Shown here in pieces: positions 3,066-44,256 of a stretch of DNA of 64,000 nt. This DNA is from Deltaproteobacteria bacterium. GTDB lineage: Bacteria > Myxococcota_A > UBA9042 > PHBI01 > JACKFB01. Each line of letters begins with the position of its first letter. Positions within the stretch are counted from its first letter, which is position 1. The translations under genes and the position numbers were made by a program. Under the pieces are notes generated by a model that searched no databases, was not told the DNA's origin, and saw only the letters and a program-made list of their open reading frames with translations. The DNA is taken from assembly GCA_020632695.1 (NCBI GenBank), contig JACKFB010000014.1:6231-70230 (forward strand), in the 5' to 3' direction.

Positions 3066-5387
3066 ATGACACGACCGATGAGGCGACGGATCCCGCTTCT
3101 GGGATGGATGGTGATCGCGGCGCTGGCCGGCTCGCTGGCGCAGGGCGAGGCGGCGGCGGCGGAGGGCGAGGCCCCCGCGCCGACGGCCGCAGCGCCTGCC
3201 AGGGCCGCCGGCGACGCGGCCGCGCTCGAGCAGACGCCGCGGGTCGAGGCCCGGCTCGTCAGCGACGTCGACTCGATGGTTCCCGGCGGCAGCTTCCGGG
3301 TGGGCGTCCAGTTCACCATCGCCCCCGACTGGCACATGTACTGGATCTACCCGGGGGACGTCGGGCTCCCCACCGAGGTGCACTTCGAGGGCCCCGACGG
3401 GGTCGACTTCGGAGAGCTGCGCTGGCCCACACCGCACCGGATCGAGAGCAGCAACGGCCTGGTGAGCTACGGCTACGCCGACTCGGTGCTGCCCTGGAGT
3501 ACCGTGCGGGCGCCGGCAGGGCTGCTCGAGGGCGAGAAGGTGACGCTCACCGCCCGCGTGCGCTGGCTGGTGTGCGCCGAGAACTGCATCCCCGGGCAGG
3601 CGCAGCTCGCGTTGACGCTACCGGTGGAGAGCACGGCCAGGCCCAGCGCGGCGGCCCCGAGCATCGACGCCGCGGCGACCCTGGTCCCGGGGGAGCTGCC
3701 CCCCGACGTTCGCGTGCGCAGCGAGCTCTCGACGACGGGAGTCGCGCCCGGCGAGAGCTTCGAGGCCGTCTTCCTGATCGAGAGCGCCGGCAGCCGCTCG
3801 CTGGCCGACGCCGAGTTCTTCCCCGCGCCGGCCGACGGCCTGGACACCACCAGCGTGCGCACCGAGACCTCGGGCGCCCATGTGCCCGACGGCGGCCTGC
3901 TCATCCGGGTGGCGGGCGCCGCCTCCACCGACCCCGCGCGCACGGGCGACCGCCTGGACGGCGTGCTGCGGGTAGGCCACGGGGCCAGCGCGGCCGCCTG
4001 GGAGCTGTCTCTGCCCGTGCCGCGCCTGCCGCTGGGGCAGAACGGCGCGCCGGTGACCAGCGGGCTCTTCGCCACCGCCCCGCCCGCGCCGCGGACGCCG
4101 CCCCCGCCGAAGCTCGAAGCGGCGCCGGTGACCACGCCGCCCGCGGAGGTGGGCCCGAGCCTCATGGGGATGCTGCTCTTCGCGCTCCTGGGCGGGCTGA
4201 TCCTCAACGTCATGCCCTGCGTGCTGCCGGTGCTGTCGATCAAGGTGCTGGGGCTGGTGCAGCAGGCCGACGATGACCGGCGCTCCATCTGGTATCACGG
4301 CCTGGCCTACACCGTAGGCATCCTGGCCTCCTTCGCCGTGCTGGGGATCATCCTCATCGCGGCCAAGGCCTCGGGCGAGGCCGTGGGCTGGGGCTTCCAG
4401 TTCCAGGAGCCCGCCTTCGTCGCCGCGATGGGCGCGCTGGTCTTCGCCTTCGGCCTCTCGCTCTTCGGCGTCTTCGAGGTGGAGCTTCCGGGTGCCCACC
4501 ACATCGACGCCAAGGCCGCGCGCCACCACGGCTACACCGGCTCGTTCATGAACGGCGTGCTGGCCACGCTGCTGGCCACGCCCTGCACGGCCCCCTTCCT
4601 GGCCCCGGCGCTGGGCTTCGCCCTGGCCCAACCACCCGCCATCCTGCTGGTCTTCCTGCTCACCATCGGCTTCGGGCTGGCCCTGCCCTTCCTGGTCCTC
4701 GCCGCCATGCCCGCCTGGGCCCGGCATCTCCCGAAGCCCGGCCCCTGGATGGGCACCTTCAAGAAGGCGATGGGCTTCCTGCTCATGGCGACCACCGTGT
4801 GGCTGGTGGACGTCCTCTCGGGCCAGTGGGACCGCACGGCCATGACCCACTACCTGGGCTTCCTCACCTTGCTGGCCTTCGCGGCCTGGATCTACGGCCA
4901 CTGGGGCAACCACCCCTTCGCGCGCAACACGCGGGTCGGCGCCCTCATCGTGGCGGTCGCCCTGGTGGCCGGCGGCGCCGTGGGGCTCCTGCGACCGGCC
5001 CAGGTCGAGGTGGGCGACATCGCCTGGAAGGACTTCACCCAGGTCGACGTCGAGGCCATGTCGCAGAGCGGCAAGACCGTGTTCATCGACTTCACCGCCG
5101 ACTGGTGCGTGACCTGCAAGGTCTACGAACGCACGGTGATCAACACCGACCCGGTGAAGGGAGCGCTCGCCCAGGGCTGCGTGCTGCCGGTGCGCGCCGA
5201 CTACACCAAGGAGGACCCGCGCATCACCCACTGGCTCGAGCGCTTCAAGCGGCCCGGCGTCCCCATGTACGTCATCCTCCCCGCCGGCCGCCCCCACGAG
5301 CCGCTGCTGCTGCCGGACGTCCTGACCGAGTCCTCGCTCCTGGAGGGCCTGATTCAAGCGGGGCCAGCCACCGACTGCCCCACTTGA
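3066..5387 (+). CDS. dsbD: Thiol:disulfide interchange protein DsbD
   Basis: It has a signal peptide. The DsbD-alpha region carries the VCAENC cysteine pair. A central polytopic domain contains MPCVLPV and TPCTAPF cysteines. The C-terminal thioredoxin domain has DFTADWCVTCKV (CxxC). The ORF reaches upstream to 3000; the start was chosen at MTRPMRRR. Confidence 0.9.
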   Translation: MTRPMRRRIPLLGWMVIAALAGSLAQGEAAAAEGEAPAPTAAAPARAAGDAAALEQTPRVEARLVSDVDSMVPGGSFRVGVQFTIAPDWHMYWIYPGDVGLPTEVHFEGPDGVDFGELRWPTPHRIESSNGLVSYGYADSVLPWSTVRAPAGLLEGEKVTLTARVRWLVCAENCIPGQAQLALTLPVESTARPSAAAPSIDAAATLVPGELPPDVRVRSELSTTGVAPGESFEAVFLIESAGSRSLADAEFFPAPADGLDTTSVRTETSGAHVPDGGLLIRVAGAASTDPARTGDRLDGVLRVGHGASAAAWELSLPVPRLPLGQNGAPVTSGLFATAPPAPRTPPPPKLEAAPVTTPPAEVGPSLMGMLLFALLGGLILNVMPCVLPVLSIKVLGLVQQADDDRRSIWYHGLAYTVGILASFAVLGIILIAAKASGEAVGWGFQFQEPAFVAAMGALVFAFGLSLFGVFEVELPGAHHIDAKAARHHGYTGSFMNGVLATLLATPCTAPFLAPALGFALAQPPAILLVFLLTIGFGLALPFLVLAAMPAWARHLPKPGPWMGTFKKAMGFLLMATTVWLVDVLSGQWDRTAMTHYLGFLTLLAFAAWIYGHWGNHPFARNTRVGALIVAVALVAGGAVGLLRPAQVEVGDIAWKDFTQVDVEAMSQSGKTVFIDFTADWCVTCKVYERTVINTDPVKGALAQGCVLPVRADYTKEDPRITHWLERFKRPGVPMYVILPAGRPHEPLLLPDVLTESSLLEGLIQAGPATDCPT

Positions 5388-5418
5388 GATCGGGGTCGAT
5401 GGCCGGGGCGGCCGCTAC

Positions 5419-5900
5419 GAGCCTCGCTGGCGGCGCTCCCTCGGGTCAGGCCTGCGACGGGCTGAAGCCCGACTCGGCCTGCCCTCGGTCGCGCCGCCAC
5501 CAGCGAGGCTCTCGCTGGCCGCCTCGGCCATCGCACACGGGGGCGTAGTCGGTCGGGGTTGGGGGTTTGGGTGGCGGGTCGGGATGTCGGGGCTCGGCCT
5601 TCGGCCTCGGGTTGGGGGCGGGCTGCGATCTGGGAGCTCGGCCTTCGGCCTCGGGCTGACAGACGGGGCAGTGACGGGCTTGGCTCGGGCGCGGTACCGG
5701 TCTCGGTGGCGGCGTCAGGCTCAGTGCCGGGCTCGGTGCCGGGCTCAGGCACGATCCGGTCTCGGTCCGGTGGCGGCTCCGGCCTCCGGTCTCGTGTGGC
5801 AGGCTCGGTGGCCTCAGGCTCGGCTCGGTGTCGGGCTCGGATCGGTGTCGGCTCAGGCTCGGCCTCGCTGACGATCTCGGCCTCGGTCTCGTGACTCATC
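5419..5900 (+). repeat. Intergenic repeat element, copy A: nested stem-loop core followed by a G-quadruplex-prone (GGNTCG)n tract
   Basis: The 46-nt core TCGGGTCAGGCCTGCGACGGGCTGAAGCCCGACTCGGCCTGCCCTCG (5441-5487) is identical to that in copies B and C. It is flanked by the inverted repeat GAGCCTCGCTGGCGGCGC / GCGCCGCCACCAGCGAGGCTC (5419-5436 and 5491-5511). It is followed by GGGGTTGGGGGTTTGGGTGGCGGGTCGGG and about 300 bp of GGCTCG-type hexamers. Confidence 0.7.
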
Positions 5901-8140
5901 TCGGCCCCGGCTCGGTGACGGGCTCGGTCTCAGCCCCTCCTGTCAGTCTCCAGTTCGGCCTCGGGCTCAGGTGACGGCTGATTCTGGTCTCCAGTCGACT
6001 CGGACTCAGTCGGACTCGTGGCTCGACCGGTCTGCTCGGACTCGGACCAGGCTCGGTCCCGGGCTGGACTCGTCAGCCTCGCTGGCCCTCGGCCGTTAGG
6101 ACCGCCAGCGGCTTCCTGCCAGCAGCCAGCGGCGCTCGCCGTACCAGCGTCCACAGGCAGGCGCAGGCGTCCGGTGGCTCGCTCGACCGCTCCATCGAGC
6201 TCGAGATGGCTGGCCCACGCGGCGCCGTATCACCTCTTCGCGCGACTACCGGGCAGGCCCAGCTCCCGCTCAGCCCGGTGACGATCGCCAGGCGGTACCA
6301 CCGCCTGCCTCCCGAATGCCGGTTCGCGGGTGCGCGGTCGGGCGTCATCCAGCTTCCACGAGCTCTGCACTGGCGCCTGTGACGATAGCTGACGCCTCGT
6401 ATTCCGCTCGCTCGAGCCCTCGCGGGGCCCACGCACCGTCGTCGCCGCGCCGCATCTTCGCCTCGGCAGCGTCGCCACCGGGAAGTCGGACCCGCCGATA
6501 GTCCAGCACGTGCGGGCCTGTGCCCTCGATGGACCGCAGCGACCGTCGGCCGCGTTTTGGCAGCGCAACTCCCGTTAACCGCCGCAGCTCCGCACCTCGT
6601 GGTCGGCACCACCGGCTCCAGCGTCTGCAGCTCGTCTCCGATCCTGGCGAGGCCCTCCGGGGCCACCAGCCTGACGCCCTGATGCCTCAGCCCCACCTCC
6701 CACCGGGTGAACTGCCCCGCCGCGCCGTCAGCAGCTCGATCCTCGCCTGCGCGCGAAGGGCGGCGCGCGTCCACGCCTCTCGCGCGACCTCGCCGCCACG
6801 GCGCATGCGCCCTGCCATCGCTGTCAGGTCGCGGCTCGCGAGTCAGCAGCGGTCGGTGCGCCAGCATCGCGCGCCGGTCCGACGCAGTCCACCACCTGCG
6901 CCTCGACGTCGCGCGCAGCACCACCTCCCCTGGGTCCTCCAGGTGTAGCCAGGCGCGGTCCAATTCAGCCCTACCGTCAGGCGCCAGCACCTGCAGGCCG
7001 CGCCCACGGGTCGACGCTCGTCCACCGAGAACACGAGATCCCCACCTGCATGCGATCGTCGGGTCGGTCGACGTCGGTCCATCAGAAGCCAGGGTGTCCA
7101 GCCGCCTGAGCCTTTGACCGCGAGGGACTCGAGAAGCGCGCCTGCGGCTCGGCGTCGTTCACCACGTCCACGGCGAGCGCCTCGGCGGCGTCCACCAGAT
7201 CATCGCCTCTCGGCCCCGTGAAATCTGCCAGGTCCCTCAGCGCGTCCGCCGCCGGGGCGTCCCCGCGCGCCTCGTCAACGCCAGCCGCAGCTTCTCCTGC
7301 CCGCTGCCGCAGATCCCTTCGCCGCGGGCGTCCACTGGTCCCAGCGCCACCACCCGCACGCGCGACCGGCGCCAACGCGCCCTTCAGACGCGCTGTCGGT
7401 CACACGCCGGCGCCGGCCTCGGCGCCAACAACCCCCGATCCCTACCAGCAGGGTCACCGCACCACGCGACGGCGGTCCGGCCAGCGCGTCGCCTTCGGTC
7501 GACCTTGCCGCGGCGCCTCGAACGCTGCCTCGCCTCCTCCGCTGCCCGGCTCCCGACTCCGCTCACCCGGCACCACGCCCAGCGCACGTCACCCCCTCGT
7601 CGGCGCCCGCCGCCGGTCGACCTCGACACCGCCCGCTGCCGCCGCCCGCACCCCGCCGCGCCAGCCACGCCACCGGATCCAGCCCCACGCGCCTCCTCCA
7701 CCGCCCTCGCGCCCCGCAGTGCAACTCATGCCCAGATCGCCGCCCGCCGCACCACCACCACCGCCCCTCATCATCCTGCACCGGTCCCCAACCCTCTACC
7801 GCCCCCCCCCGCCGAACCCGAAGCCCGTCCACGAAATCCAGCCACAGCCACGGCCGCGTTCGGTGACGGCTCGCCCTCGGTCTCAGTGGGACGCGCGGTC
7901 TCGGTCTCTGTCGGTCTCGGACTCGGCCTCGGCCTCGGCGACAGTCTCGGCCTCAGACTCGGCCCCGGCCCCAGCCTCAGTCTCGGCCCCTCAGCCTCAC
8001 GGTCCGGTCCAGCCTCGGTGTCGGTGACGGCCTCGGCGACAGTCTCGGTCTCAGCTTCGGCCTCGGACTCGGCCCCAGCCTCGGCCCGGCCACGGCGGCC
8101 CGGCCTCGACCCCAGCCTCGGTCCCCCTCCTCGCCTGTCC

Positions 8141-11100
8141 CTACAACTCGAGCAGACGCCACCGCGCGCAGTCGGGGATCTCCTCCAGCGTGCGGCCGAC
8201 CAGGATCACCGCCAGGTCGGAGGCGTAGATGCCGTAGGCCTCGTGGTTGTCGGCGATGGCTATCTCGGTCCAGCTCGCCGGTCGTCGGGTCGGCGTCTCG
8301 CAGCACGATCCACAGCGTGGCCTGGACGTTCCCGGTGGGTCGGGCGAGCGGCCGAAGATGAACACGTGGGTGCTGTTGGTGGCGATGCCGAAGGCCGCGG
8401 CCACGGTCGAGGCAGCCCGGGCCTTCCCAGCGACCCAGCCCGTGGTCGTGCGGCGGCGCAGCGTGCCGTTCCCCCGACGATCCAGGGCTCCGCGCCGACG
8501 TAGGCGATGTCGTGCATGTCGATGCCGATGGGCAGGTGCTCGACCTGCCAGGTCGGAGTCGCCGTCGCTGAACAGCACGCTGATCCACCGTTGTATCCCC
8601 GGCGAGCACCCGACCCGGCGACGGCTCCGGCGTCGGTACGGCCGGCGATGGCGGTGGGGTAAGAGCGCGCCAGCCACCGAGGCCTCAGGTCTGTCAGGCG
8701 CGCCGCAGGTCACCGCCACCGTGCAGCGTCGTCCTCGCGCTCGCAGCGGACGACCCGGATGCCAGCGCGTCGCGGCCGGCGATGTAGTACGCGTCGGTCG
8801 TGGTCCCGTCGTCGAGCGCCGCGCTCCAGACGCCGCTGGAGCCGATCGGCAGCACCGCCTCGAGCGCGTCGGACGTCGCTGCCGACGAGGTCGACGCTGT
8901 CGGAGCCGGGCTCGACGCGGCCGATCTCGCCGTCGACACCCACCGTGAGGTCGCGAGGAGCCCGGTGAGCGCCCAGGGGATGGGCGTGCCGGCCAGCGGC
9001 GACGCGGGGCGGCGCCTGCAGGCGATGCAGCACGCTCCAGATGCCGCCGTCGCCGACGCACTCGTCGCCGACCAGCAGGTAGCGGGTCAGGACGTATAGG
9101 ACCCGCCGAAGCGCGTAGCCTGATGGTGCCCTCCGCCGCCACCGCGCAGGTAGCGTCCCCGAGCGGGACCTGCGCCACCTGGGTGCCCGCACAGCCCACC
9201 CACGCACAGGTCAGGCGCCGTGGCGGCCGTAGCGTCGTCGCAGCTCGTGAAATCAGGGGCGCGCCTCCTGGACGCAGCCCGTCTCCGCGCTGCAGGTGCC
9301 GATGCTGCATCCGCTGCCGTCGTCGCACGCGGCGTCGTTCGGGGTGTGGGTGCAGGCGTCGCCAGTGCAGGCGTCCTGGGTGCAGGCGCCGTCGTCGCAG
9401 GGGCTCGCCGACGCCACCGCAGGTCCCGGCGTCGCAGATCGACGCGGAGGTGCACGGGTCCCCGTCGTCGCACGAGAGGCCGCCGGTGACCGGGCTGCTC
9501 TCGCAGGCGCCCGTCGCCTGGGAGCAGGCGTCGGTGGTGCACGGGTTGGCGTCGTCGCAGTCGGGGGCCACGCCGGGCGGCAGGCGCCCTCGACGCAGAG
9601 GTCTCCCACGGTGCAGAGGTCTCCGTCGTCGCACGCGCCGGCCACCGCCACGTGGCTGCAGCCCGTCCCGACCACGCAGGCGTCGGTGGTGCAGGGGGTT
9701 GCCGTCGTCAGGCCCCGTCGTCAGGCGGAGATGCACCCGCGAGCGGGTCGCACGCGTCGGCGCTGCATGCGGCGCCGTCCTCGCAGCGGCTGTCGCGCGG
9801 CTCGGACACGCACCCTCCAGCGTGCAGAGATCCTCAGTGCACTCGACGGCGTCGCTGCACAGGCGTCGTCCAGCGTCGTGCGGCAGCCCTCGAGGATCGC
9901 AGACCTCCGACGTGCAGGCGACCTCGTCCTGGCACGCCGTGTCGACCGCCGCGTGGCTGCACCTGATGTCCGGCACGCAGGCGTCGAGGTGCAGTCGATG
10001 GCGTCGTCGCAATCGGTCGGGCTCGTCGCTTTTACAGTCCGGACTGGCGGACCTCCGCGGTCGTGCACGGGTCGTTGTCGGGCACGGGGTGCCGTCGTCT
10101 ACGGCGACGGACTCGCACGCTCCGTGACGGAGCTGCAGGCCAGCACCTGGCAGGGGCTCCGTCGACGGCGGGCACACCACCGGCGGCGCCGTCTGGATCG
10201 CACTCGCCGGTCAGGTCAGGCAGCTCCACGCAGTCGAAGGTGGCCCGCAGCGTCGCCGTGCCGCGATCGGCGGCGACGGTGCACTCGCAGACGTTGTCGC
10301 CCGGCTGGCAACCTCCGCCGGAGCACAGGTCGCCGTCGGTGCATGGGAGCCGTCGTCGCACGCGGCGCCGTCGTCAGGCGTGTTCTCGCGCGGTGATCGC
10401 TCGCAGCGGTCGCTGGTGCAGGGTTCCCGTCAGCGCACGGCGAGTCGTCGAGCGTGTGGACGCAGACGCCGTCGGCGCTGCACGCGTCGATGGTGCAAGG
10501 CACGTCGTCGTTGCAGTCCGGCGGCCCGGGCACGCAGACGCCGCCATCGCACGCGTCGCCGACGGTGCACGGGTTACCGTCGTCGCAGGCCCCGACCCGA
10601 GGCGGGTTGCTGGACAGCCGGCGACGGGGTCGCAGGACTCGTCGGTGCACGGTTGCCGTCGTCACAGCTCGCCGCGTCCGGCGTGTGGACGCACTGGCCC
10701 GACTCGCAGGCGTCCATCGTGCAGGCCACCGCGTCCGGAGCAGTCCAGGGCGACGCCGGCGCAGACCCCGGTCGCGCACTGGTCGGCGGTGGTGCAGGGG
10801 TCGCCGTCGTCGCACTCGCCCGTCCACGGCTGGTGCGTGCACCCCTCGGCCTCGGTGCGCGTCGGTCGTGCAGGGTCGCCGTCGTCGCAGTCGGTGGCTT
10901 CGTGGTGCACCGCCCGCCCGCAGACGCCGTTCTCGGTGCAGGGCGAGCCGTCGTCGCAGGCCCCGCCGTCCAGCGGAGTCGCCGCGCAGGGCGCCGTCTG
11001 CGGGTCGCAGGCGTCGCTGGTGCCAGGGTTCGAGTCGTCGCAGGGCAGCACGTCCCCTGGCAGACGCCCGCTGCGCAGGCGTCGTCGATGGTGCGGGGTC

Positions 11101-12646
11101 GCCGTCGTCACAGAGCCCGCGCCGGTGTCGGGCTCGTGCGTGCAGGCCGGTCGCCGCAGCGCAGGCGTCGATGGAGCAGGGGTTCCGATCGCTGCAGTCG
11201 CGCGGCTGACCGCGGCAGGCGCCCTCGTCGTCGCAGCGGTCGTCCAACGAGCAGGCGTCGCCGTCGTCGCAGGCGGCCGCCGAGGACCGTCGCCGCGCAG
11301 AGCCCGGTCGCCGGTCGCAGGCCACCTGCGTGCAGGGGTCGTCGTCCTCGGTGCAGGTGGTGACGGTGCCGGGGTCGATCTCGCAGGCGCGCTCGCCACC
11401 GGGAAGGACACGCAGCGGTTCGCCAGCGCAGAGGTCCTCGGGCGGCGCGCAGTCCTCGTCGACCTCGCAGGGGCAGGTGCTGGCCCCGCCGCCGCAGGCG
11501 CCGGCCTCGCAGACCGTGCCCTCGGTGCAGGGGTCCGAATCGTCGCAAGCGGTCCCGTCGGCCGCCGGCCCCGAGACGCAGCCGCCGCTCACGGGTCGCA
11601 GGACGCCTGCTGACAAGGCGCGTCGGGCAGGCACACGACAGGCTCCCCAGGCGAACACACCCCGCTCCCGGTACACGCCCCACCCCCGCGCGGGGTCGCC
11701 TCCATCGCAAGCGACGCCGACCGCCACCTCGACCACGCACGCCCCCAAGCCATCGCAAGCAGCCACGCCGCACTGAGGATCCACCGCGCCCGGCAGCGGG
11801 CACGGGCTGCCCAGCTCAAGGCCTGCGGCACGCAGAACCCGCCCACACACGCGCTCGGAGCACACGGCAGTCGCCCGCCATCACGCACTATCGCGGCCCG
11901 GGCGCCGGACAATCGCCAGCCGTCGTGCAACCCGATCCCGCATCCGTCTCCACGTCCGGGCCAGTGTCGGTCTCGGTCTCGGTCTCGGTGTCGGTCTCGG
12001 CGTCGGTGTCGGCCTCGGTGTCGGTGTCGGTCTCGGTGTCGATGTCGGTGTCGGTCTCGGCCCCGGCCCCGGCGTCGGTGTCGGCGTCGGTCTCGGTGTC
12101 GGCGTCGGTCTCGGTGTCGGCGTCGGTCTCGGTGTCGGTCTCGGCCCCGGTGTCGGTCTCGGACCCGGTGTCGGTCTCGGACCCGGTGTCGGTCTCGGTC
12201 CCGGTCTCGGTCTCGGTCTCGGCCCCGGTGTCGGTCTCGGTCCCGGTGTCGGTCTCGGCCCCGGTGTCGGTCTCGGCCCCGGTGTCCGAGGCCGCGTCCG
12301 AGGCCGTATCCGCGTCCGCGTCCGAGTCCGAGGCCGCGTCCGCGTCCGAGTCCGAGGCCGTGTCCGCGTCCGCGTCCGAGTCCGCGTCCGAGTCCGTGTC
12401 CGTGTCCGTGTCCGAGTCCGCGTCCGAGACCGCGTCCGTGTCCGCGTCTGGGACCGCGTCCGCGTCTGGGACCGCGTCCGAGACCGCGTCCGAGTCCGCG
12501 TCGGGGATCGGGGAGGCGTCGGCGTCGGCCGTCGGGCCGACCTCCGCCGTGTCCGGGTTCTCCAGGTCGCCTTCCCCGGAGCCGCCCTCACATCCCAATG
12601 CGATGAGGGCCGCTACGGCCACCCACGCCAACCTCGAACCACGCAT
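8141..12646 (-). pseudogene. Lipoprotein with acidic (D/T/S)n linker and myxococcal cysteine-rich repeats, apparently broken by multiple frameshifts
   Basis: A lipobox N-terminus [19 protein letters not shown] is encoded at 12646. A TD/SD/AD-rich linker follows (12600-11890). CDDGDPCT / CDDGNPCTVGDAC-type repeats are then spread over at least three reading frames between 11900 and 8900 (ORFs 10216..11865, 10662..11411, 10032..10361, 9253..9675, 8141..10180). A C-terminal piece is also split across frames (8140-8700). The breaks could be sequencing errors instead of true decay. Confidence 0.45.
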
Positions 12647-12795
12647 CCTCGCTCCCGCATCAACCCGTCATCGCGCGACCAGTGTCTGTTACGGGTGCAG
12701 ACGAAGCAAAATGAAGCGACGCGGCGCGGGGGTGCGGTCGACTGCACCGCTGAGCCCCGGCCTGGCGGCGCCGGACGGCCGCCGCTCGGGCGCCG

Positions 12796-13895: not shown

Positions 13896-16057
13896 GACCC
13901 GGCCTCGCCGCCATCCGGGGCGTCGCGTCCCTGGCGCTGCTCCTGTCGCTGCCCTCGCCTCCCGTGCGCGCCGCCGAGCCGCCGCCCGGCGACCTGGCCA
14001 CCGAGCCCGAGCTGGACGACGATGAGGAGGCGACGCTCCCCGAGCCGGACGACGCCGACGACGACGCCGACGAGGACGCTCGAGCCCTCGCCCCCATCGA
14101 CGCCAGCGACCGCCACCAGCTCGCCCTCCTCGCCGACAGCCTGCCGGCCCACGGCGTCCCCCCGGTCCTGGTGCCGCCGCCCGACGCCGACGATCGCGCC
14201 TTCCACGACCTCGCGCGCCGCCTCGCCCGCGTCTTCGCCCCCCGTCGCGACCGGCACGGCGCCCGCCTCGCCGCGCTGCTCGCCACCCGCCCGCTGGCCC
14301 CGGCCATCGAGGCCCTGGTCCCGCGACATCGCCGCTACCGCGCGCTCATGGACGTGCTGGCCCGCGAGCGCAACCAGCTCCTGGCCGGCCAGCCCACCCT
14401 GCCCCGCACCACCTACCGCGTGCAGGCCGGCACCACCGCGCCGGAGGTGGCCCTGCTGCGCCAGCGCCTGCTGATGGAAGGGTACGGCGACCCCGGCGTC
14501 ACCGGCCGCCTCGCCAGCTACTTCGACGACCGCCTCAAGCGCGCGCTCTGGGGCTGGCAGCGAGACCACGATCTCCCCGTCACCATCTGGCTGGACGACC
14601 TCACCCGCGCCCGCCTCAACGCCCCGGTCGCCAGCATGGCCGAGGCGCTGCTCCTGGCGCTCAGCCGCTGGCGGGACATCGGCTTCCGTCAGGACGCCGA
14701 GCGCCAGGTCCTCGTCCACCTCAACGCCCAGCAGCTGGTCGCCGAGCGTGACGGCAAGGCCGAGCTGACGATGCCGGTCAGCGTGGGGCGCTCCGAGCCC
14801 GCCAACCAGACCCCGATGCTGTCCACCCGGCTCGTGAAGGTGACGGCGAACCCCTCGTGGCGCGTGCCCCGACGCATCGTCGACGAGGAGCTGCGGCCGT
14901 CGGTGGCCGACCAGCCGGGGCTGCTCCGGGACCGCGGCTACCTCGTGGACATCAGCCCCGCGGGGCGCTGGCGGGTGATCCTGGGTCCCGGACCCCAGAA
15001 CCCGCTCGGGCGCCTGAAGTTCAGCCTCGCCGGCACCGGCGGCGTGTACCTGCACGACACCCCGGACGCGCGCCAGTTCGACGCCCGCCGCCGCAGCCTG
15101 TCGCACGGCTGCGTGCGCGTGCAGTCGGCGCGGGAGCTGGCGAGCTGGGTGCTGGGCGACGAGGCGGAGCCGCGGCTCGACGCGGCGCTCGCCGGCACGG
15201 CGACCCGGAGCTTCCAGGCCGCCCCCTCCATCCCGGTCCATCTGGTCTACCAGACCCTCACGGTCGACGAGGACGGGCGCGTCCTGCGCTTCCCGGACAT
15301 CTACGACCTCGACCGCGAGGCGCTGGCGAGCATCGACGCCCGCAGCGTGCTCGCCGCGCGTCCGCCGCCGGTGCGGGAGGCTCCGTCGACGCAGGAGGCC
15401 GGGGGCGGGGCCGAGGCCGGGGCCGGGGGCGGGGCCGGAGCCGGGGCCGGAGCCGGAGCCGGGGCCGGGGCCGGGGCCGGAGCCGGAGCCGGGGCCGGGG
15501 CCGGAGCCGGGGCCGGAGCCGAGGCCGGGGCAGGGGCCGGGGCCGGGGGCGAGGCCGGGGCCGGGGCCGGGGCCGGGGGCGAGGCCGGGGCGGTCTACGG
15601 GCTGCGCTTCGCCGTCGTCGACGAGGCCGGGCGCACCGGCTCGCTGGATGGCCACGCCGGCCACCTGCTGGCCGTGATGTTCGCCGGGGAGACCTGCGCG
15701 CCGTGTCACGACCTGGCCCCGCGCGTCGTGACGCTCAGCCGTGAGCTGCTCGCCCGGGGTCAGACCCTCGACTTCGTGGTCATCGACGCCGAGCACCCGA
15801 ACGACGCCCCGCCGCGCCAGTGGGAGGAGGGCATGCCGGCGCCGATCCTGCGGGTCCCGGAGTCGGTGCTGCGCGGCGCGTCGTCGCTGGGCACCATCGA
15901 GGTGTTGCCCACCCTCTGGATCGTCGGGCGCACCGGGGTCCCGCTCTACCGCTACGAGGGGACCGGCGACGAGGTCGTGGCGGCGATGCGCGAGGACGTG
16001 GAGCGCTATCTGGAGGCCGAGGCCCGCTTCCGCACCCGCGCGCGTCCGCTACGCTGA
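13892..16057 (+). CDS. L,D-transpeptidase (YkuD) with peptidoglycan-binding domain, (GA)n linker and C-terminal thioredoxin-like (CAPC) domain
   Basis: It has a signal peptide and an acidic N-terminal region. The PG_binding_1-like segment is LLRQRLLMEGYGDPGVTG...LWGWQRDHDLPV. The YkuD catalytic motif is YLHDTPDARQFDARRRSLSHGCVRV. A 50-aa GAGAGA linker follows. The thioredoxin-like fold carries TCAPCHDLAP. Confidence 0.8.
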   Translation: MRPGLAAIRGVASLALLLSLPSPPVRAAEPPPGDLATEPELDDDEEATLPEPDDADDDADEDARALAPIDASDRHQLALLADSLPAHGVPPVLVPPPDADDRAFHDLARRLARVFAPRRDRHGARLAALLATRPLAPAIEALVPRHRRYRALMDVLARERNQLLAGQPTLPRTTYRVQAGTTAPEVALLRQRLLMEGYGDPGVTGRLASYFDDRLKRALWGWQRDHDLPVTIWLDDLTRARLNAPVASMAEALLLALSRWRDIGFRQDAERQVLVHLNAQQLVAERDGKAELTMPVSVGRSEPANQTPMLSTRLVKVTANPSWRVPRRIVDEELRPSVADQPGLLRDRGYLVDISPAGRWRVILGPGPQNPLGRLKFSLAGTGGVYLHDTPDARQFDARRRSLSHGCVRVQSARELASWVLGDEAEPRLDAALAGTATRSFQAAPSIPVHLVYQTLTVDEDGRVLRFPDIYDLDREALASIDARSVLAARPPPVREAPSTQEAGGGAEAGAGGGAGAGAGAGAGAGAGAGAGAGAGAGAGAGAEAGAGAGAGGEAGAGAGAGGEAGAVYGLRFAVVDEAGRTGSLDGHAGHLLAVMFAGETCAPCHDLAPRVVTLSRELLARGQTLDFVVIDAEHPNDAPPRQWEEGMPAPILRVPESVLRGASSLGTIEVLPTLWIVGRTGVPLYRYEGTGDEVVAAMREDVERYLEAEARFRTRARPLR

Positions 16058-16108: not shown

Positions 16109-16834
16109 TCAGGGCGACGCCGCCTCGCCCTCGGGCCGCTCGCCCAGGTCCAGCCCGTAGCGCCGGGCGGTGTCCGCCAGGTAGCGGTCCAGCTCGCTGG
16201 CGCCGCCGTCGCGGTAGATGCGGGCGAAGCGGCTGCGGTAGGTGGCCGCGAGGCTCACCCCGTCGACGCTGACGTCCCAGGCCGCCCAGCCGGTGTCACG
16301 ATGGATGAGGCGGAAGGCCAGCGCCTTGTCCGAGCGGTCCTTGACGTGGATGAGGGTCGCCACCACCGACGCGCGATCGCAGCTCAGGGCCGCGCGGCCG
16401 ACCTCGAGGCGGTGGTGACGCGGGTCCTGGAGGCGCTCGATGTAGCGGTGCTCCAGCAGGACGCGGAGGCTCTGGCGCCAGCGGTCGCGGGTGGCGTCGT
16501 CGGCCTCGGCCCACGCCTCGCCGAGCACGCCCTGGGCGAAGCCGTCCACGTCGACGACGGCGCGCGCCACCTGCTGCGCGCGCTTCTTCCGCAGCGCCTC
16601 GCCCGCTGGTCCCGGGAGGTCGATGGCGTAGGCCTCGCCCAGGCGTTGGAACAGGGTCTCGATGGCGCGCCGCGCCGACTCGGGGTCCTCGACACAGCCG
16701 CCGGCGGCAGGCTCCGCCGCCTCGGGAGAGGTCGCCTCGGCCGCCGGGGGCGCCGCGGGAGGCGCGCCGAAGCTCGCCGGGACGGTCAGGACCGCCAGCA
16801 CCGCGGCGGCGACGCTCGAGAAGGTGGGCTTCAT
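16109..16834 (-). CDS. Secreted MlaC/Ttg2D-like phospholipid-binding protein (tentative)
   Basis: It has a signal peptide MKPTFSSVAAAVLAVLTVPASFGAP. Its size and the central motif VDVDGFAQGVLGEAW...WRQSLRVLLEHRY resemble the MlaC family. Confidence 0.45.
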   Translation of the reverse strand: MKPTFSSVAAAVLAVLTVPASFGAPPAAPPAAEATSPEAAEPAAGGCVEDPESARRAIETLFQRLGEAYAIDLPGPAGEALRKKRAQQVARAVVDVDGFAQGVLGEAWAEADDATRDRWRQSLRVLLEHRYIERLQDPRHHRLEVGRAALSCDRASVVATLIHVKDRSDKALAFRLIHRDTGWAAWDVSVDGVSLAATYRSRFARIYRDGGASELDRYLADTARRYGLDLGERPEGEAASP

Positions 16835-16944
16835 TCACACCCAGGGTACGGGATCGAACACGTTCTACTCAACGGCGCGCGCGCGAAGTGCCGGCCGGCG
16901 GATAGTGTTTGCGAGTCCTGTGGCATGCGTTTAGCCTCCCGCCA

Positions 16945-21023: not shown

Positions 21024-23522
21024 ATGGAGCGCGTAACCTCCCCCTCCGTGACAGCCTCCCCCTCCGCGCCGCGCGTCCGCGTGCATCCGCGTCGCCCCGG
21101 CGGCGTGCTCGGCGTCCTGCTCCGCGCCGTGGTCGCGCTCGGCCTGTGGCTGGGTCTGCTCGGCGCCGCCGCCGTGGTCGCCGTGTACGCCTGGTACGCC
21201 CGCGACCTGCCGCGCCTGGACGGGTTCGACGACCTGAGCAGCGCTGGCGTCACCAGCTTCACCTCCGCCGACGGGCAGGTGGTGGGCGAGTGGTACCAGG
21301 AACGCCGCATCCTCATCCGGTGGGACCAGCTCCCGCGCCAGCTCGTGCTGGCGGTGCTGGCCGCCGAGGACGCTCGCTACTTCAGCCACAGCGGCGTCGA
21401 CTTCAAGGGTGTGCTGCGCGCCATGATCACCAACCTGCGCGCCGGCGACGTCCGCGAGGGCGCCAGCACCATCACCCAGCAGCTCGCCAAGACCCTGGTC
21501 GGCGCCGACCGCAGCTACGTGCGCAAGATCCGCGAGGCCATCCTGGCGCGGCGCATGGAGGACCTCTACAGCAAGCACCAGATCCTGACCTGGTACTTGA
21601 ACGCCGGCTTCCTGGGGCACGGGAGCTACGGCGTACAGGCCGCCGCGCAGAACTACTTCCGCAAGGATCTCTGGGACCTGGACCTGGCCGAGCTGGCGAC
21701 GATCGCCGGCTCCTTCCAGTCCCCCGGGCGGGTGAACCCGGCCGTGAACATGCCGGGGTCGCACGAACGCCTGGCGCACGTGCTGGCGCAGATGCAGCGC
21801 CGGGGATGGATCAGCGGCGAGGAGGCGCGGGCCGCGCTCCAGAAGGAGCTGGTCGTCTACCCGATGCGCGACCCGCTGGGCGACCACGTGCCCGAGTACA
21901 CCGAGGCGGTCCGGCGCGACATCGCCGCTCGCTATGACAAGGATGGGCGCTCCTGGCTGGACCTGGGGCTGAAGGTCTCGCTGGCGGTCGAGCCGGCCAT
22001 CCAGCGGGAGGCCTCGGCGGCGCTGCGCTCGGGCCTGGAGGAGGTCGCGCGCAAGCAGGGCTATCCGGGCCCGCTGGCGCGGCTGGGGCGTGACGCCTTC
22101 TTCGAGCGGGTGGCCGGGCAGCTCCCCGCCGAGGGTCCCCGCGAGGGCCAGCGCTACCTGGGCCGCGTGTCCAAGGCCAGCGCCAAGGAGGCCACCGTCG
22201 AGCTCGGTCCGAAGAGCGCCGGCACCCTCACCCTCGAGCGCACCCGCTGGGCGGTCCCCTACACCGAGCTCCCCGTCGACCCCAAGGGCGGCCGCGACCG
22301 CTCGAAGTCCGTCTCCTTCGAAGGCAAGCTGGGCGCCCTCGACAAGGCGCTGGCGCCGGGCGACGTGGTCTGGGTCGAGGCCTTGGCCGCCGAGGGCCAG
22401 GGGCAGCCGCTGGCCCTGGTCCCCATCCCGATGATGGAAGGTGCGCTCATCAGCTACCGCAACGTCTCCGGCGGCGTGGACGCCATGGTGGGCGCCTGGG
22501 ACTTCGACCGCAGCCAGGTCGACCGCACCCGGGCGCTGCGCCAGACGGGCTCGACGATGAAGCCCATCGCCTACTCCAAGGCCTACGACTCGGGCCTGCC
22601 GCCCTCGGCGCTCTTCTCGGGCGCGCCCTTCCGCGAGGGCACCTACAACCCGACCGGCGCTCGCTCCAAGGACGACATGCTGGTCTGGAACGCGCTGGTC
22701 AAGTCGGAGAACTCGGTGAGCCTGAGGGTGCTTCAGGACGTGCTGCGCCGTGCCGGCCTCCCCGCCTGGCAGGCCTGGGGACGCACCCTGGGGCTGAGCC
22801 GCCCGCTCGACGGGCACACCTCCGAGGTGCTGGGCGCCGACCAGACCCCCTTCGACATGGCCCACGCCTTCGGCGTCTTCGCCCTGCGGGGCATGGCGCC
22901 GGCGATGAACACCGTCCGCAAGGTGGTGGACGCCGAGGGCCACGTCCTCGAGCGCCACATCGGGCCGCTGGACCCATGGAGCGGCACGGCCGACGCCATC
23001 ACGGCGCTGTGGGAGTCGGTGCTGGTGCCGCGTGACCGCCTCATCGAGGCCAGCACCGCCTACCTCATCACCGCCAACCTGAACGAGGCGGTGAAGCGTG
23101 GCACCGGCAAGCGCGCCAAGATGGACGGCTACGAGGTCGCCGGCAAGACGGGGACGCTGCCCTACGACGTCTGGTTCGACGGCTACAACCACGACCGCAC
23201 GGCGGTGGTCTGGATCGGCGCCGACCGGCGCGAGCGGCCGGTGGGGCGCTCGGAGCGCTCGAACAAGATCTACGGCGGCGACGCCGCGGCGCCCATCTGG
23301 AAGGAGTTCATGGACTCGGTGCAGCCCTCGCGGGGCGTGGGCTCGCTGGTCGAGAAGCCCCCCGCCGACGTGACCTGGCTGCTGGTGGACCCGGACACCG
23401 GCCTGCTCGGCTGCGACGGCAAGGGCCAGCGCATCCCCCACAAGAAGGGCACCGAGCCCACCGAATGCGCCCTGCAGCCCGAGTCGCCGCAGAACGTCAT
23501 GGACGCCGAAACCAAATTCTGA
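21024..23522 (+). CDS. mrcA: Class A penicillin-binding protein (PBP1A-type, transglycosylase plus transpeptidase)
   Basis: GT51 motifs are AEDARYFSHSGVD, GASTITQQ and RKIREAILARRME. Transpeptidase motifs are STMKP (SxxK), SEN and KTGT. It has an N-terminal TM helix. The start was chosen at MERVTSPS; the upstream ATG at 20919 is also possible. Confidence 0.9.
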   Translation: MERVTSPSVTASPSAPRVRVHPRRPGGVLGVLLRAVVALGLWLGLLGAAAVVAVYAWYARDLPRLDGFDDLSSAGVTSFTSADGQVVGEWYQERRILIRWDQLPRQLVLAVLAAEDARYFSHSGVDFKGVLRAMITNLRAGDVREGASTITQQLAKTLVGADRSYVRKIREAILARRMEDLYSKHQILTWYLNAGFLGHGSYGVQAAAQNYFRKDLWDLDLAELATIAGSFQSPGRVNPAVNMPGSHERLAHVLAQMQRRGWISGEEARAALQKELVVYPMRDPLGDHVPEYTEAVRRDIAARYDKDGRSWLDLGLKVSLAVEPAIQREASAALRSGLEEVARKQGYPGPLARLGRDAFFERVAGQLPAEGPREGQRYLGRVSKASAKEATVELGPKSAGTLTLERTRWAVPYTELPVDPKGGRDRSKSVSFEGKLGALDKALAPGDVVWVEALAAEGQGQPLALVPIPMMEGALISYRNVSGGVDAMVGAWDFDRSQVDRTRALRQTGSTMKPIAYSKAYDSGLPPSALFSGAPFREGTYNPTGARSKDDMLVWNALVKSENSVSLRVLQDVLRRAGLPAWQAWGRTLGLSRPLDGHTSEVLGADQTPFDMAHAFGVFALRGMAPAMNTVRKVVDAEGHVLERHIGPLDPWSGTADAITALWESVLVPRDRLIEASTAYLITANLNEAVKRGTGKRAKMDGYEVAGKTGTLPYDVWFDGYNHDRTAVVWIGADRRERPVGRSERSNKIYGGDAAAPIWKEFMDSVQPSRGVGSLVEKPPADVTWLLVDPDTGLLGCDGKGQRIPHKKGTEPTECALQPESPQNVMDAETKF

Positions 23523-23540
23523 TCGAGGCGCCGCGCGGGA

Positions 23541-24010
<470 letters not shown>

Positions 24011-24175
24011 CGCCATGGGTTCGGTCTCTTGCCGGGGGTTCGGGCTCTCGTTTCGGCGTTGACAACCTGCCACCGGCATTCGAATTTGGGCGGTGATGCG
24101 CGCTCTCGGACCTGCCGCGACGCGTTCGAGACGCTGTGTCGGCTCCTTTGTCGGGCCGAGACACCCCGAGACGCG

Positions 24176-27100
24176 ATGAGGTTTGGGATGGCCGGGCGCG
24201 CGACACGATGGTTCTCGTTGGCTCTGGCGCTCGCGTGGGCGCACCCCGCGTTCGCGGGCGACCCGGGATGGGAGAGCGATCCCTTCGCGGCCGCGCCGGC
24301 GGAGCTGCTCGCCGCCGCCGAGGGACCCAGCCCCGCGGGCGCCGACGTGGAGGTGCTGCTGGAGCACGGCGCCTACGCCTACGACGCCGAGGGCCGCCAG
24401 AGCCTGCGCACCGTCCGGGTGTTCCGCATCCTCACCCCGGCCGGCATCTCGGGCTGGCAGAGCTTCGGGACCTCGTGGCTGCCTTCGACCGACGACGCCC
24501 CCACGCTGCGGGCGCGGGTCGTGACGCCGGCGGGGCAAGCGTACGATCTGGACCCGGCGACCATCGCCGACTCCGGTGCCGACGTCCGCTCGAGCGAGCA
24601 GTTCGACGACAGCCGCGTCATGCGCGCCCCGCTGCCGGCGCTCCAGGTGGGCGCGGTCGTGGTCGAGGAGCGCGCCGTCCGCGAGCACACGCCCTTCTTC
24701 CGCGGTGGCCGCGGGTCGGGCTGGAGCTTCCAGCTCTCCGTGCCGGTGCGCCACACCCGGCTCGAGCTGCGCTCTCCGAAATCCCACCCGCTGCGCTGGC
24801 GAGCCCAGCGCCTGGAGATCACGCCCACCACGACCAAGGACGGCGACGAGGTGGTGCTCACCTTCGACGGCGGCCCCACCCCGGCGCTCGAGGACCTGCC
24901 GCCGGCGCTGCCCCACGACGCCGAGGGCTGGCCCGGCGTGACCTGGACCACCGGGACGACCTGGCGCGACGCCGCGCGCTCCTATGCCGAGATGATCGCG
25001 CCCGTGCTCGCGAGCACGGTGTCCCAGGCGGACTTCGCGGCGGCGGTGGGCGACGCCAAGGGCCGGGACGCGATCATCGCGCGCGCAGCGGCCTACGTTC
25101 AGGGGAACGTGCGCTACACGGCGCTCAACTTCGGTGAAGGCGCGATCGTGCCGCGTACGCCCGAGCAGACGCTGGCGCGCGGCTACGGCGACTGCAAGGA
25201 CAAGGCCACGCTGCTGGTCGCGCTCCTGTCGCGGGCCGGCATCCGCGCGCACCTGGCGCTGCTGCAGCCCGGCGAAGGACCCGATCTGCGCCCGGACCTC
25301 CCCTCGCTCAGCCCCTTCAGCCACGCCATCGTGTACATCCCGGGCAAGCCCGAGCTGTGGATCGACGGCACCGCGCGCGACGTGCCGGTGGGCGCGCTGC
25401 CCTCCGGCGACCAGGAGCGCCTGGCGCTCATCATCGCGCCCGACACCAAGGGGCTGGTCCTGACGCCCGGCTCGTCGGTGGGTGAGCACTGGAAGCGCTC
25501 GCGACGGGTGATCCGCCTCTCCCGCAGCGCCCCGCCCGAGCTGAGCTTCGAGACGACCTACGGCGGCTCGGCGGCCGGGTCCACCTTGCGTGCCTGGTGC
25601 CGCGAGCGCGACCCCGAGGAGGACCGCGCCCAGATCTCGCGCCATCTGGACTCGGACTTCTTCGGTGCCCGGCTGGTGTCCGGCCCCGAGTGCGAGGCCC
25701 CGCCGGCGCTGGACGAGCCCGTGCGCCGCGCATACACGGCGACCGCCCCGGGCATCGTCGCCACCGACGCCAGCGAGGACATGGAGGTCACCCTGGTGCT
25801 GACCAGCCTGACCTCGTGGCTGCCGGACGCGTGGACCCAGCCTCCAGCCGCCGGGCCCAGCGGCGACGAGGCGCGGCAGCGGGACGCCGCGTGGCTGGAG
25901 CGCCCCGAGGACGTCGAGCTGGACGTACCCCACCGCGTCGAGGTGCAGTACCGGATCGAGCCGCCCATCGGCATGGTCGCCAAGGACCTGCCCCCCTCGC
26001 GCACGCTGCCGCTGGGTGGCGGCTCGCTGCGCGAGCGCTTCGAGGTGACGGCGGATGGCGCGCTGGAGGCGTCCTTCGCCCTCGAGACCGGGCCGCGGCG
26101 CATGAGCACGGCCGCTGCGCGCGAGGCCATCGAGGGCGTGCGCGCCTGGCTGGCCGAGCCCATGGTGAGGGTGACCTTCGCCTACGCGCCGCTCGAGCTG
26201 GAGCGCGCCGGCAGGATCGCCGACGCGTTGGCGGCCTTGCGGTCTCTGGCCGAGCGCGACACGGCCACGCAGCTCCACACCGATCACCTGGTGCGCATCC
26301 TCGGGGAGGTCGGGCTGCCGAGCATCGCCCGGGAGGAGGCCGAGAAGGGGACGCGGCTGCGACCCGACGACCCGGCGGCGCACTTCCTGCTGGGGCTCGC
26401 CCGCTCCAACGGCGCGTATGGCTCGGAGAAGATCCGGGGGATGGACCTGGAGGGCGCGACGAAGGCCTATCGCCGGGCGCTGGAGCTGGACCCGACCCTG
26501 TCGGGCGTGCGCCTCAACCTGGGGCTGCTGCTGGCGCTCGGCACCGACGGCGTCACGTTCAGCCCGCTCGCCGACCTGGACGGGGCCGCCGAGGTGTTGC
26601 GCGGGGCGACCGACGACGCCGGGCGCCTGCAGGTCGCCGCCGCCCTGATGGCCGTGCTCATCTCGGCCGGGCGCAGCGCCGAGGCCGTCAAGGTGGCCGA
26701 GGGGCTCGAGCTGCCGGCGAGCGCGCGCCAGACCCGCCTCGCGGCGCTCGCGGCTACCCAGGGACTCGAGGCGGCGCGTCAGCAAGCCGCGCGCTGGTAT
26801 CCGGACGCGGACCAGCGGCGCGCGGCGCTGGACGGGGCGGCGGACTTCGCCGTCGCCGCTCGCGACTACCCGCTGGCCGCCGCCCTCGTCGCGAGCAGCC
26901 CCAGCTCCAGCGCGGAGGCCAGCGCGCGCTCCACCCGGGTCAGCACCCTCCAGAAGACGCGCCGAGTGGATCCGACCACCCTCGACCCGAGCGAGCCCTG
27001 CACGCCGCTGTGGAGGGCCCTGGCGGAGCTGATGGGCCCCGCATCCGAGGCGAGCGACGAGGCCATCCTGGCGCAGTTCGCCACGCCGACGAGGTCCTGG

Positions 27101-32399: not shown

Positions 32400-32800
32400 G
32401 AACCGAGCCCGGAACCGAGACCGAGACCGAGACCGACCCCGAAACCGAGACCGAGTCCGAGCCCGAGCCCGAGCCCGAGCCCGAGACCGACACCGACACC
32501 GACACCGACACCGAGCCCGAGCCCGAATCGGAGACCGCCACCGAGCCCGCGCCCGAGCCCGCCACAGAAACCGAGCCGACCGAGCCGACCGAGCCCACCG
32601 CCCCCGACCCCGCCCGAGCCCCCACGCCGAGCCCTGAAGGCGCCCGTTCCGAGGCGCCGGCAGCGGCTGCTGCGGGCGTCGTGGGCAAGGAGCGAGCGAG
32701 GGCGCACCGAGTCGGGCTTCAGCCCGTCGCAGGCCTGACCCGAGCGAGCGACGCCGGCCACGGCGCCCGCAGCAGTCGCTGACGGTGCCTCGATCTATAT
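32400..32800 (-). repeat. Intergenic repeat element copy C (inverted relative to copies A and B)
   Basis: The reverse-complemented core is at 32698-32744. Outer stems are at 32658-32678 and 32765-32786. A (GAGACC/GAGCCC)n tract lies at 32405-32640. The element sits between the convergent cstA and mutase genes. Confidence 0.8.
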
Positions 32801-40856: not shown

Positions 40857-40920
40857 ATCCGGACGTCCGGACGTCCGGATGTCCGGATGTCCGGATGTTC
40901 GGACGTCCGGACGTTCCGAC
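40857..40920. repeat. Tandem octamer array (TCCGGAYG)x8
   Basis: Read directly: atccggacgtccggacgtccggatgtccggatgtccggatgttcggacgtccggacgttccgac. The unit contains the palindrome TCCGGA. Confidence 0.85.

Positions 40921-42315: not shown

Positions 42316-42319
<4 letters not shown>
41798..42319 (+). CDS. Hypothetical protein, translationally coupled to the downstream Ser/Thr kinase
   Basis: It has GC3-biased codons. Its stop overlaps the kinase start (GTGA). No motif was recognised. Confidence 0.45.

Positions 42320-44256
<1,937 letters not shown>

Follow-up and report, generated by a model that had tools for sequence, protein, structure and literature searches.

A ~140-nt hairpin joined to a codon-phased hexamer tract forms a candidate interspersed repeat family in a high-G+C myxobacterial genome

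Introduction

When a short sequence recurs within one bacterial genome, nearly unchanged at its centre and flanked by arms that differ from copy to copy while remaining self-complementary, it may be asked whether the host keeps it as a structured RNA, whether DNA is recombined at it, or whether it is mainly DNA that gets itself copied. This question is raised by a 64,000-nt stretch of a contig of a Deltaproteobacteria bacterium (JACKFB010000014.1, hereafter the window; G+C 73.8%), in which an earlier note, made from the letters alone, had described a repeated hairpin core and had proposed either a structured RNA or a cruciform or recombination site. As detailed below, the part of this proposal that concerns a conserved structure holds, but the placement of the copies, among them a tandem pair of half copies, speaks for an interspersed repeat rather than for an RNA gene proper or a site of recombination, and the most likely identity of the element is ordinary selfish repeat DNA from a new family.

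Copies of the Repeat

The 47-nt core is found on the plus strand with 0 mismatches at 5441-5487 (copy A) and at 23595-23641 (copy B), and on the minus strand with 3 mismatches at 32697-32743 (copy C), when the number of matches expected in the shuffled window is 0.00. A more diverged copy, D (43723-43865), was detected by a repeat scan and by profile searches. The repeat that the earlier note had described in three identical copies is thus real, and its core is indeed unaltered in A and B, but the window holds four copies, the third carries mismatches, the cores of B and C had been placed one nucleotide off, and the cores do not all lie on one strand, copy C being on the minus strand.

The same genomic region is also represented in the MAG GCA_020632735.1 (“Deltaproteobacteria bacterium”), which encodes a protein 100% identical to the DsbD of the window and of which two contigs reach ~7 kb and ~9 kb past the window ends. 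Two further copies lie on these contigs, outside the window: a full copy E in the upstream extension (L012 618-759) and a copy F in the downstream extension (L013 5730-5922), the latter consisting of two tandem half copies. The four copies of the window included, this amounts to five full copies and one pair of half copies within ~81 kb of one genome. No further diverged copy beyond A-F was found by the covariance model described below or by nhmmer in the window, in the loci L002-L004 or in the two extensions. The contig JACKEZ010000035.1 of the same MAG stops in the first arm of hairpin A, 30 nt past the DsbD stop codon (L012 12311-12340 corresponds to 5388-5417 of the window), and this end is a short-read assembly break at the repeat.

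Among the full copies, B and C are the closest, their hairpins being ~96% identical, and their identity falls sharply beyond the hairpin. Because of this drop, it is conceivable that the hairpin alone is the unit that was recently copied, with a preference for tract ends as targets.

A Long Hairpin with a Nearly Invariant Core

Read on the strand that we call R, which is the reverse complement of the core as first quoted, every copy presents its parts in an identical order: a conserved left end, GGRRCCGAGNCC, common to the modules, then a (GAN-NCC)n tract, then a C-rich spacer of ~50-70 nt, and finally a hairpin of ~140 nt. The GGGC-TGAA-GCCC hairpin noticed at first is present within the core, and the core does sit within a longer stem, as had been stated: hairpins A-D are the four longest inverted repeats of the window, and the whole hairpin extends over ~140 nt rather than 46 nt. 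Against a covariance model derived from copies A-D, hairpin A (5396-5534, R sense minus, listed as inverted repeat I2) scores 116 bits, hairpin B (23547-23687, minus) 147.7 bits, hairpin C (32651-32791, plus), in which three adjacent core bases are altered, 138.7 bits, and hairpin D (on the plus strand) 135.2 bits. Folding, which the earlier note had proposed as a check, yields a single ~140-nt hairpin at each window copy, and the full copies A-E reach RNA minimum free energies (MFE) of -95 to -130 kcal/mol, with z-scores, for those of the window, down to -8 relative to dinucleotide shuffles. Copy F, of which one arm remains, accordingly does not fold.

Conservation peaks over the central 48-70 nt, which are nearly invariant, and reaches its trough in the mid-arms: A and B have the same base at 48/48 core positions, when their arms have substantially diverged. 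It had been observed that the outer stems of A differ from those of B and C while each remains self-complementary, and this is borne out once the five full copies are aligned with the covariance model. Gapped pairwise identity is uninformative for the arms, G+C-rich regions giving ~70% regardless, and structure-guided pair counts were used instead. Counted in this manner, 97.6% of the cells form standard pairs, 15 of the 50 pairs are changed on both sides and none of 500 shuffles reaches any of these measures, statistics which are nevertheless weak in that they come from four independent lineages (B and C, ~96% identical, counting as one) and from an alignment fitted to the structure. When the partner columns are slid by 1-3 positions, pairing falls to 32-47% and the compensatory pairs to 0-2. 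The covariation-like pattern described from the letters alone is therefore confirmed. Across A, D, E and B/C, the arms are mosaic homologues that differ in a compensatory manner position by position, and the insertion of one core into unrelated hairpins is ruled out, since the outer stems are such diverged homologues. However, compensatory change alone does not prove an RNA that is functional for the host, because selfish hairpin repeats (REPINs) covary too.

A Strand Asymmetry in Favour of R

The strand on which the core had been quoted turns out to be the less favourable of the two, its reverse complement folding 5-26 kcal/mol better. Under RNA parameters, R is the more stable strand in 5/5 full copies, with MFEs for R and for the other strand of, respectively, -118 and -113 kcal/mol in A, -130 and -104 in B, -110 and -95 in C, -128 and -104 in D, and -125 and -103 in E. 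Under DNA parameters, with which A, B, D and E were folded, R comes out clearly ahead in B, D and E, and the two strands of A are equal. The advantage of R is due to its G·U pairs and to tandem G·A internal loops. Indeed, at least 8 column-by-lineage positions carry a G·U pair on R against a single A·C (binomial p ~0.02), and two to three symmetric GA/GA internal loops, which are pyrimidine-pyrimidine mismatches on the other strand, lie beside the core in every copy.

This asymmetry points to single-stranded R, be it RNA or ssDNA, as the form that is selected, or else as the form preferentially exposed to deamination, and the bias towards G·U, added to the G·A loops and to the invariance of the core, suggests that a single-stranded R form is recognised or selected. 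The conservation of the core and the G·A loops would also fit an RNA selected by the host, a reading to which we return with the placement of the copies at gene ends.

The Hexamer Tract and the G-Quadruplex Motif

The (GGNTCG)n hexamers reported beside the cores are genuine and flank every copy on the same side, but they are no separate downstream feature: they are the reverse complement of the (GAN-NCC)n tract of the module, which encodes an acidic Glu/Asp-Pro/Thr linker. Since this tract, whose length goes from 110 to ~500 nt, is found on the same side of the hairpin in every copy and starts with the common left-end motif GGRRCCGAGNCC, it belongs to the hairpin module. In copy A, the C-rich spacer and a decayed hexamer tract occupy 5535-6060 (minus), as delimited by reading the sequence and by a regular-expression search for G-quadruplex (G4) motifs, and GC3 exceeds 0.9 in no frame. 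In copy B, the spacer and the tract (23721-24011) occupy 23688-24012 (minus), outside any convincing gene; in copy C, the tract (32404-32595) and the spacer occupy 32404-32650 (plus), the tract starting 8 nt past the CstA stop codon (32394-32396); and in copy D, a tract translated as (Gly/Glu-Thr)n and the spacer occupy 43578-43722 (plus), within the Ser/Thr kinase ORF 42316-44256.

The window contains ~10 hexamer tracts, several of which are found inside ordinary genes as low-complexity linkers. One of them, a (Gly-Ala)n tract at 15305-15700, lies inside an L,D-transpeptidase (YkuD) gene and illustrates how generally this genome carries hexamer microsatellites in codon phase.

The G4 motif had been presented as a constant part of the repeat. 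Canonical motifs adjoin only copies A (5555-5578, plus) and C (32601-32623, minus), when copy B has such motifs only deep inside its hexamer tract (23892-23961) and copy D has no adjoining canonical motif, and no (G3+N1-7)x4 motif is conserved at a fixed position in every copy. A regulatory element composed of a hairpin and a G-quadruplex, as first imagined, could invoke the canonical motifs situated less than 70 nt from the hairpin in A and C as well as the G-runs that the spacer of all copies carries on the same strand. It is nonetheless scarcely credible to us, given that B and D lack an adjoining canonical motif, that the 22 motifs of the window fall within the range of 6-25 (mean 15) obtained in dinucleotide shuffles, and that Pro codons and the CCC units of the tract, read on the other strand, account for the G-runs. 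Because canonical motifs occur only near A and C, at a window density within the shuffle range, the G4 is a by-product of G-runs complementary to the C-rich spacer and CCC units, and not a component of the element.

Copies at Gene Ends

The full copies A, B, C and E are intergenic and abut gene ends. The foot of hairpin A lies 9 nt from the stop codon of DsbD (5385-5387) and that of hairpin B 25 nt from the stop codon of PBP1A (23520-23522), and hairpin C ends 3 nt from the stop codon of a methylmalonyl-CoA mutase (32795-32797, minus). The modules of C and E fill the entire space between convergent genes, stop to stop, their tracts starting 8-12 nt past the stop codon of CstA in C and of a Cys-rich protein gene in E. 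The other convergent spacers of the window measure 13-52 nt, and it is because such spacers are tiny that the inserted modules touch both stop codons. In the case of E, the convergent cation-efflux (CDF) gene lacks its own stop codon and continues for 28 codons within the hairpin, until the TGA in the apical loop terminates it (L012 686-770). The public annotation also places a 145-residue ORF over the tract and hairpin of E, which is probably spurious.

As for hairpin A, it closes a 2.75-kb stretch (5388-8140) between convergent genes, in which no frame has coding-type GC3 and no long ORF has a Pfam match. A decayed hexamer tract starting with GGGACCGAGGC is found at 7875-8120 (minus), ~20 nt past the stop codon of a Cys-rich gene (8141, minus strand), and is probably the far left end of a repeat-filled spacer of 2.75 kb that ends in hairpin A. 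Two decayed hexamer tracts are seen in this stretch, along with a GCTCGGCCTTCGGCCTCGGG unit present twice (5592-5612 and 5636-5656). The Cys-rich gene itself (8141-12667, minus) is very large, encodes a repeat protein with CDDG..C units and weak Dicty_CTDC matches, and bears a 600-nt (Asp/Glu-Thr)n tract near its start; it appears split over several frames (8141-10180, 10662-11588 and 11888-12667), which could reflect frameshifts, a pseudogene or assembly errors. Elsewhere in the window, two convergent genes, whose ends are at 40160 and 41055, are separated by a ~900-nt spacer that harbours a palindromic tandem repeat, (TCCGGACG)n, at 40857-40920.

With a hairpin base located 0-25 nt from the stop codon of the gene on the first-quoted strand in A, B, C and E, and with a convergent gene that, in C and E, stops 8-12 nt short of the opposite module end, one may envision a cis-acting RNA selected by the host, namely a bidirectional, U-tract-independent terminator that would also stabilise the 3' ends of the abutting genes. 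The very strong folding energies, the invariance of the core when the arms covary, and the G·U and G·A asymmetry, which would then designate R as the transcribed strand, are in line with this reading, and a simple scan found no classical terminator in three regions, a weak site inside the tract of C excepted. Promoter and terminator consensus scans are uninformative in this G+C-rich DNA. We nevertheless deem it unlikely that the element is such an RNA, and just as unlikely that the latter was recruited repeatedly because this 74% G+C genome is devoid of classical T-rich terminators. A terminator would be harmful in D and F, which lie within coding sequence; a 60-bp stem far exceeds what termination needs; the microsatellite tract would have no role; most of the other gene ends of the window are without the element; and relatives lack it at the same loci. 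If, as we favour, the copies are those of an interspersed repeat, their hairpin probably also acts as a terminator, with termination or stabilisation of transcripts from both sides being likely a side effect.

Copies Translated in Frame

Copy D sits in the Ser/Thr kinase ORF between a transmembrane helix and a conserved C-terminal domain, with the reading frame preserved. The segment provides ~60 additional in-frame residues, which none of six kinase orthologues possesses, and leaves the C-terminal domain intact. Copy F shares its frame of translation with D, and the two peptides are alike (PPID[GV]EAP ... GPSQAR.E.ATSS...SGGASANP). Around F (L013 5700-6320), the half copies F1 and F2 and the spacer are each tandemly duplicated, and the surrounding R-sense frame is interrupted by an irregular tract unit of 4 nt and, a second time, by the loss of 1 nt, which introduces a TGA, so that this copy may lie in a pseudogene or in a misassembled gene.

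The common frame and similar peptides of D and F, the codon-like composition of the tracts (GC3 of 0.96-0.99, GC1 higher than GC2 on the R strand) and the R-sense ORFs that stay open through A, B and E could evoke a protein-coding linker cassette, made of an acidic repeat, a Pro-rich part and an Ala/Ser-rich part, that would be shuffled between genes, the hairpin being incidental and the intergenic copies pseudogene remnants. This seems to us very improbable. Indeed, the core is read in different frames in B/C, D and E, with nucleotides and pairing conserved, and the frame used by D and F contains an in-frame TGA in the intergenic copies. Moreover, the R-frame peptide of B has no match among 5.8 billion proteins, copy C has no available start codon, and a coding constraint does not predict a 60-bp palindrome. 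What is conserved is the nucleotide sequence and its pairing, not a protein. A programmed frameshift leading from the upstream gene into the tract was also considered and is ruled out, the frame offsets of C and E being different.

Related Genomes and the Insertion Past PBP1A

The closest other genomes are uncultured Myxococcota MAGs, with a PBP1A identity of 80-82%, and the covariance model finds no copy of the repeat in the relatives' loci. In three related MAGs, tatA comes directly after PBP1A, whereas the window has, inserted exactly past the PBP1A stop codon, hairpin B with its tract and a DUF3857-transglutaminase-TPR gene of 4.2 kb. Relative to these three MAGs, the insertion measures 4.85 kb (23523-28351) and spans from the PBP1A stop codon to the tatA leader; the product of the inserted gene has 1391 residues (DUF3857/transglutaminase/TPR), and the 9-mer GCGCCGCGC plus TGA is present at both junctions. 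In one relative (L003, JAWKRR01), the spacer between CstA and the mutase is occupied by another repeat, in which CACGGAG units form inverted arrays: at 16520-16910 of this locus, CACGGAG/CTCCGTG inverted arrays in at least three blocks form long hairpins around a T8 run.

The position of hairpin B exactly at the left junction of the 4.85-kb insertion, the persistence of the strand asymmetry under DNA parameters and the conserved mismatches in an otherwise paired stem would be consistent with an ssDNA recombination or transposition site that marks insertion junctions such as this one, in the manner of REP/RAYT, of IS200/IS605 ends or of integron attC. We consider such a site improbable, since the copies carry neither the attC core sites (RYYYAAC and GTTRRRY) nor a GTAG or CGTC tag in the REP position (PMC3733652), no tyrosine recombinase or HUH gene is found in the window, and only one of the five copies borders an inserted gene. 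Besides, R corresponds to the minus strand in copies A and B and to the plus strand in C and D, and GC skew does not switch between them, a distribution that argues against such a site and also leaves an orientation bias relative to replication unsupported. Integron attC sites were rejected on three grounds, the absence of their core sites in all copies, the conservation of the centre rather than the ends, and the lack of an integrase in the window. A retron msr-msd was rejected as well, no reverse transcriptase domain adjoining any copy and the stretch 5388-8140 being without a Pfam match, and membership in a diversity-generating retroelement (DGR) was considered and rejected.

Searches Elsewhere

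The core pattern has 0 matches in a set with one genome per GTDB species and 0 matches in viral contigs, and a blastn search of copy B against plasmids returned no match. The Rfam search that had been put forward as a check gives 0 matches at gathering thresholds over the whole window, no family being reached at the score that defines membership, and around copy B the hits with E<10 are noise only. No match to the repeat was found in the literature. The repeat family is real and, in the light of this absence of Rfam, plasmid, viral and literature matches, previously undescribed.

In JGI metagenomes, the core pattern has a single match (L001), when ~0.1-0.2 would be expected by chance. The matching site (2257-2343) has in common with the repeat only the 29-nt apical hairpin, closed by a different loop (ACCA), and lies ~45 nt past the stop codon of zwf (glucose-6-phosphate dehydrogenase); the contig itself is an unrelated metagenome contig of lower G+C than the window. 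We regard this match as doubtful: either a terminator hairpin has converged by chance, or the kinship is remote.

Discussion

Taken together, these observations lead us to regard the element, with moderate confidence, as an interspersed repeat module that is lineage-specific and non-autonomous, comparable in its general nature to REP/REPIN, ERIC, RPE and BOX. We favour this selfish-repeat reading because the module is present in multiple copies in one genome and absent from relatives at the same loci, because the copies occupy the least harmful sites, namely convergent spacers, gene ends and disordered linkers, and because they have decayed, truncated and tandemly duplicated derivatives and coincide with a short-read assembly break. 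Against a mobile repeat, it can be objected that the ~35 ORFs of the window, which are housekeeping genes, include no transposase, reverse transcriptase, integrase, recombinase or HUH enzyme, and that no target-site duplication is definable.

On this basis, we infer a mobile module that would be copied to new places at the DNA level by an enzyme not encoded nearby, and whose copies would survive where their insertion harms little: in convergent spacers, where they touch both stop codons, just past a stop codon, or in disordered linkers. In the latter, the module would be translated in frame as an acidic Pro/Thr-rich sequence. The maintenance of the hairpin and of its core may mean that single-stranded R, as DNA or RNA, matters for the propagation of the element or for its tolerance by the host, and a 60-bp G+C-rich hairpin would, as a side effect, stop or stabilise the transcripts that arrive from either side.

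A bolder possibility, which we see as quite unlikely, is that the module represents a new type of mobile element, with a replicative single strand (DNA or RNA) that would carry a recognition hairpin marked by G·A and G·U and a codon-phased microsatellite generated by slippage, the latter being loosely analogous to the simple-repeat tail of SINEs. Being open in two frames and encoding an acidic, Pro-rich disordered sequence, such an element could be inserted in frame. If this were true, it would provide proteins with ready-made linkers and gene ends with stop codons or terminators.

Returning to the interspersed repeat that we favour, two lessons can be drawn from it. First, covariation in a multi-copy hairpin is not in itself proof of a functional RNA. 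Second, and on a more practical level, such a repeat breaks short-read assemblies and yields spurious ORF calls, as with the 145-residue “gene” on copy E.

How does the module compare with known palindromic repeats? ERIC/IRU elements are imperfect palindromes of ~127 nt with a conserved central inverted repeat, found in transcribed intergenic regions of enterobacteria, where they can affect mRNA stability. The repeat described here is likewise an imperfect palindrome with a highly conserved centre, but it belongs to another phylum and has another sequence, and ERIC/IRU elements have no microsatellite module and, to our knowledge, have not been reported in frame within genes. The BOX elements of Streptococcus pneumoniae join a variable number of tandem sub-units to end modules with a stable secondary structure, and are thus, as here, modular interspersed repeats with a tandem sub-unit and a structured part; however, their sub-unit is of 45 nt rather than a codon-like 6 nt, and their sequence is unrelated and A+T-rich.

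The Rickettsia palindromic elements (RPEs) are 100-150 nt long and occur either in intergenic regions or in frame within genes, to which they add a tolerated peptide. The palindromic repeat analysed here likewise occurs in both settings: four of its copies (A, B, C and E) lie between genes, and D is in frame within an ORF and absent from six orthologues. It can therefore be placed in an RPE-like functional class, which is not a sequence family, since sequence and host are unrelated and RPEs come without an attached tandem-repeat tract. RPEs are mentioned in PMC3733652, together with the criterion by which REPs are recognised, a GTAG or CGTC tag left unpaired at one stem end. At the stem feet of our copies, GTAG is absent, and CGTC is found only inside the core stem. 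With regard to the terminal features by which miniature inverted-repeat elements (MITEs) are recognised, the outermost stem GAGGCGCCG/CGGTGCCTC is common to B, C, D and E and is not found in A, and no target-site duplication was recognised at any junction.

REPINs, which are REP doublets mobilised by RAYT transposases, offer a further parallel. They are long (~100 nt), hairpin-forming, extragenic, lineage-specific and non-autonomous repeats, in which compensatory changes that preserve the hairpin are common and whose structure is predicted to form in ssDNA or mRNA (PMC3116915). The module resembles them in these general traits, but in REPINs the ends (REP 16-25-mers) are conserved and the centre varies, when the centre is the most conserved part here; and unlike REPINs, it has an attached microsatellite and in-frame intragenic copies. 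An assignment to the REP/REPIN-RAYT system proper was accordingly rejected: instead of two inverted 20-40-nt units with conserved ends, the copies have a conserved centre, and none of the ~35 ORFs of the window is a RAYT (Y1/HUH) gene. If the reading of the module as an interspersed repeat is correct, it would thus add a high-G+C myxobacterial example to the palindromic repeats represented by REP/REPIN, ERIC, RPE and BOX, with two noteworthy traits, a codon-phased microsatellite as a fixed part of the module, and the tolerance of one and the same module as an intergenic filler, as a donor of stop codons and as a translated protein linker.
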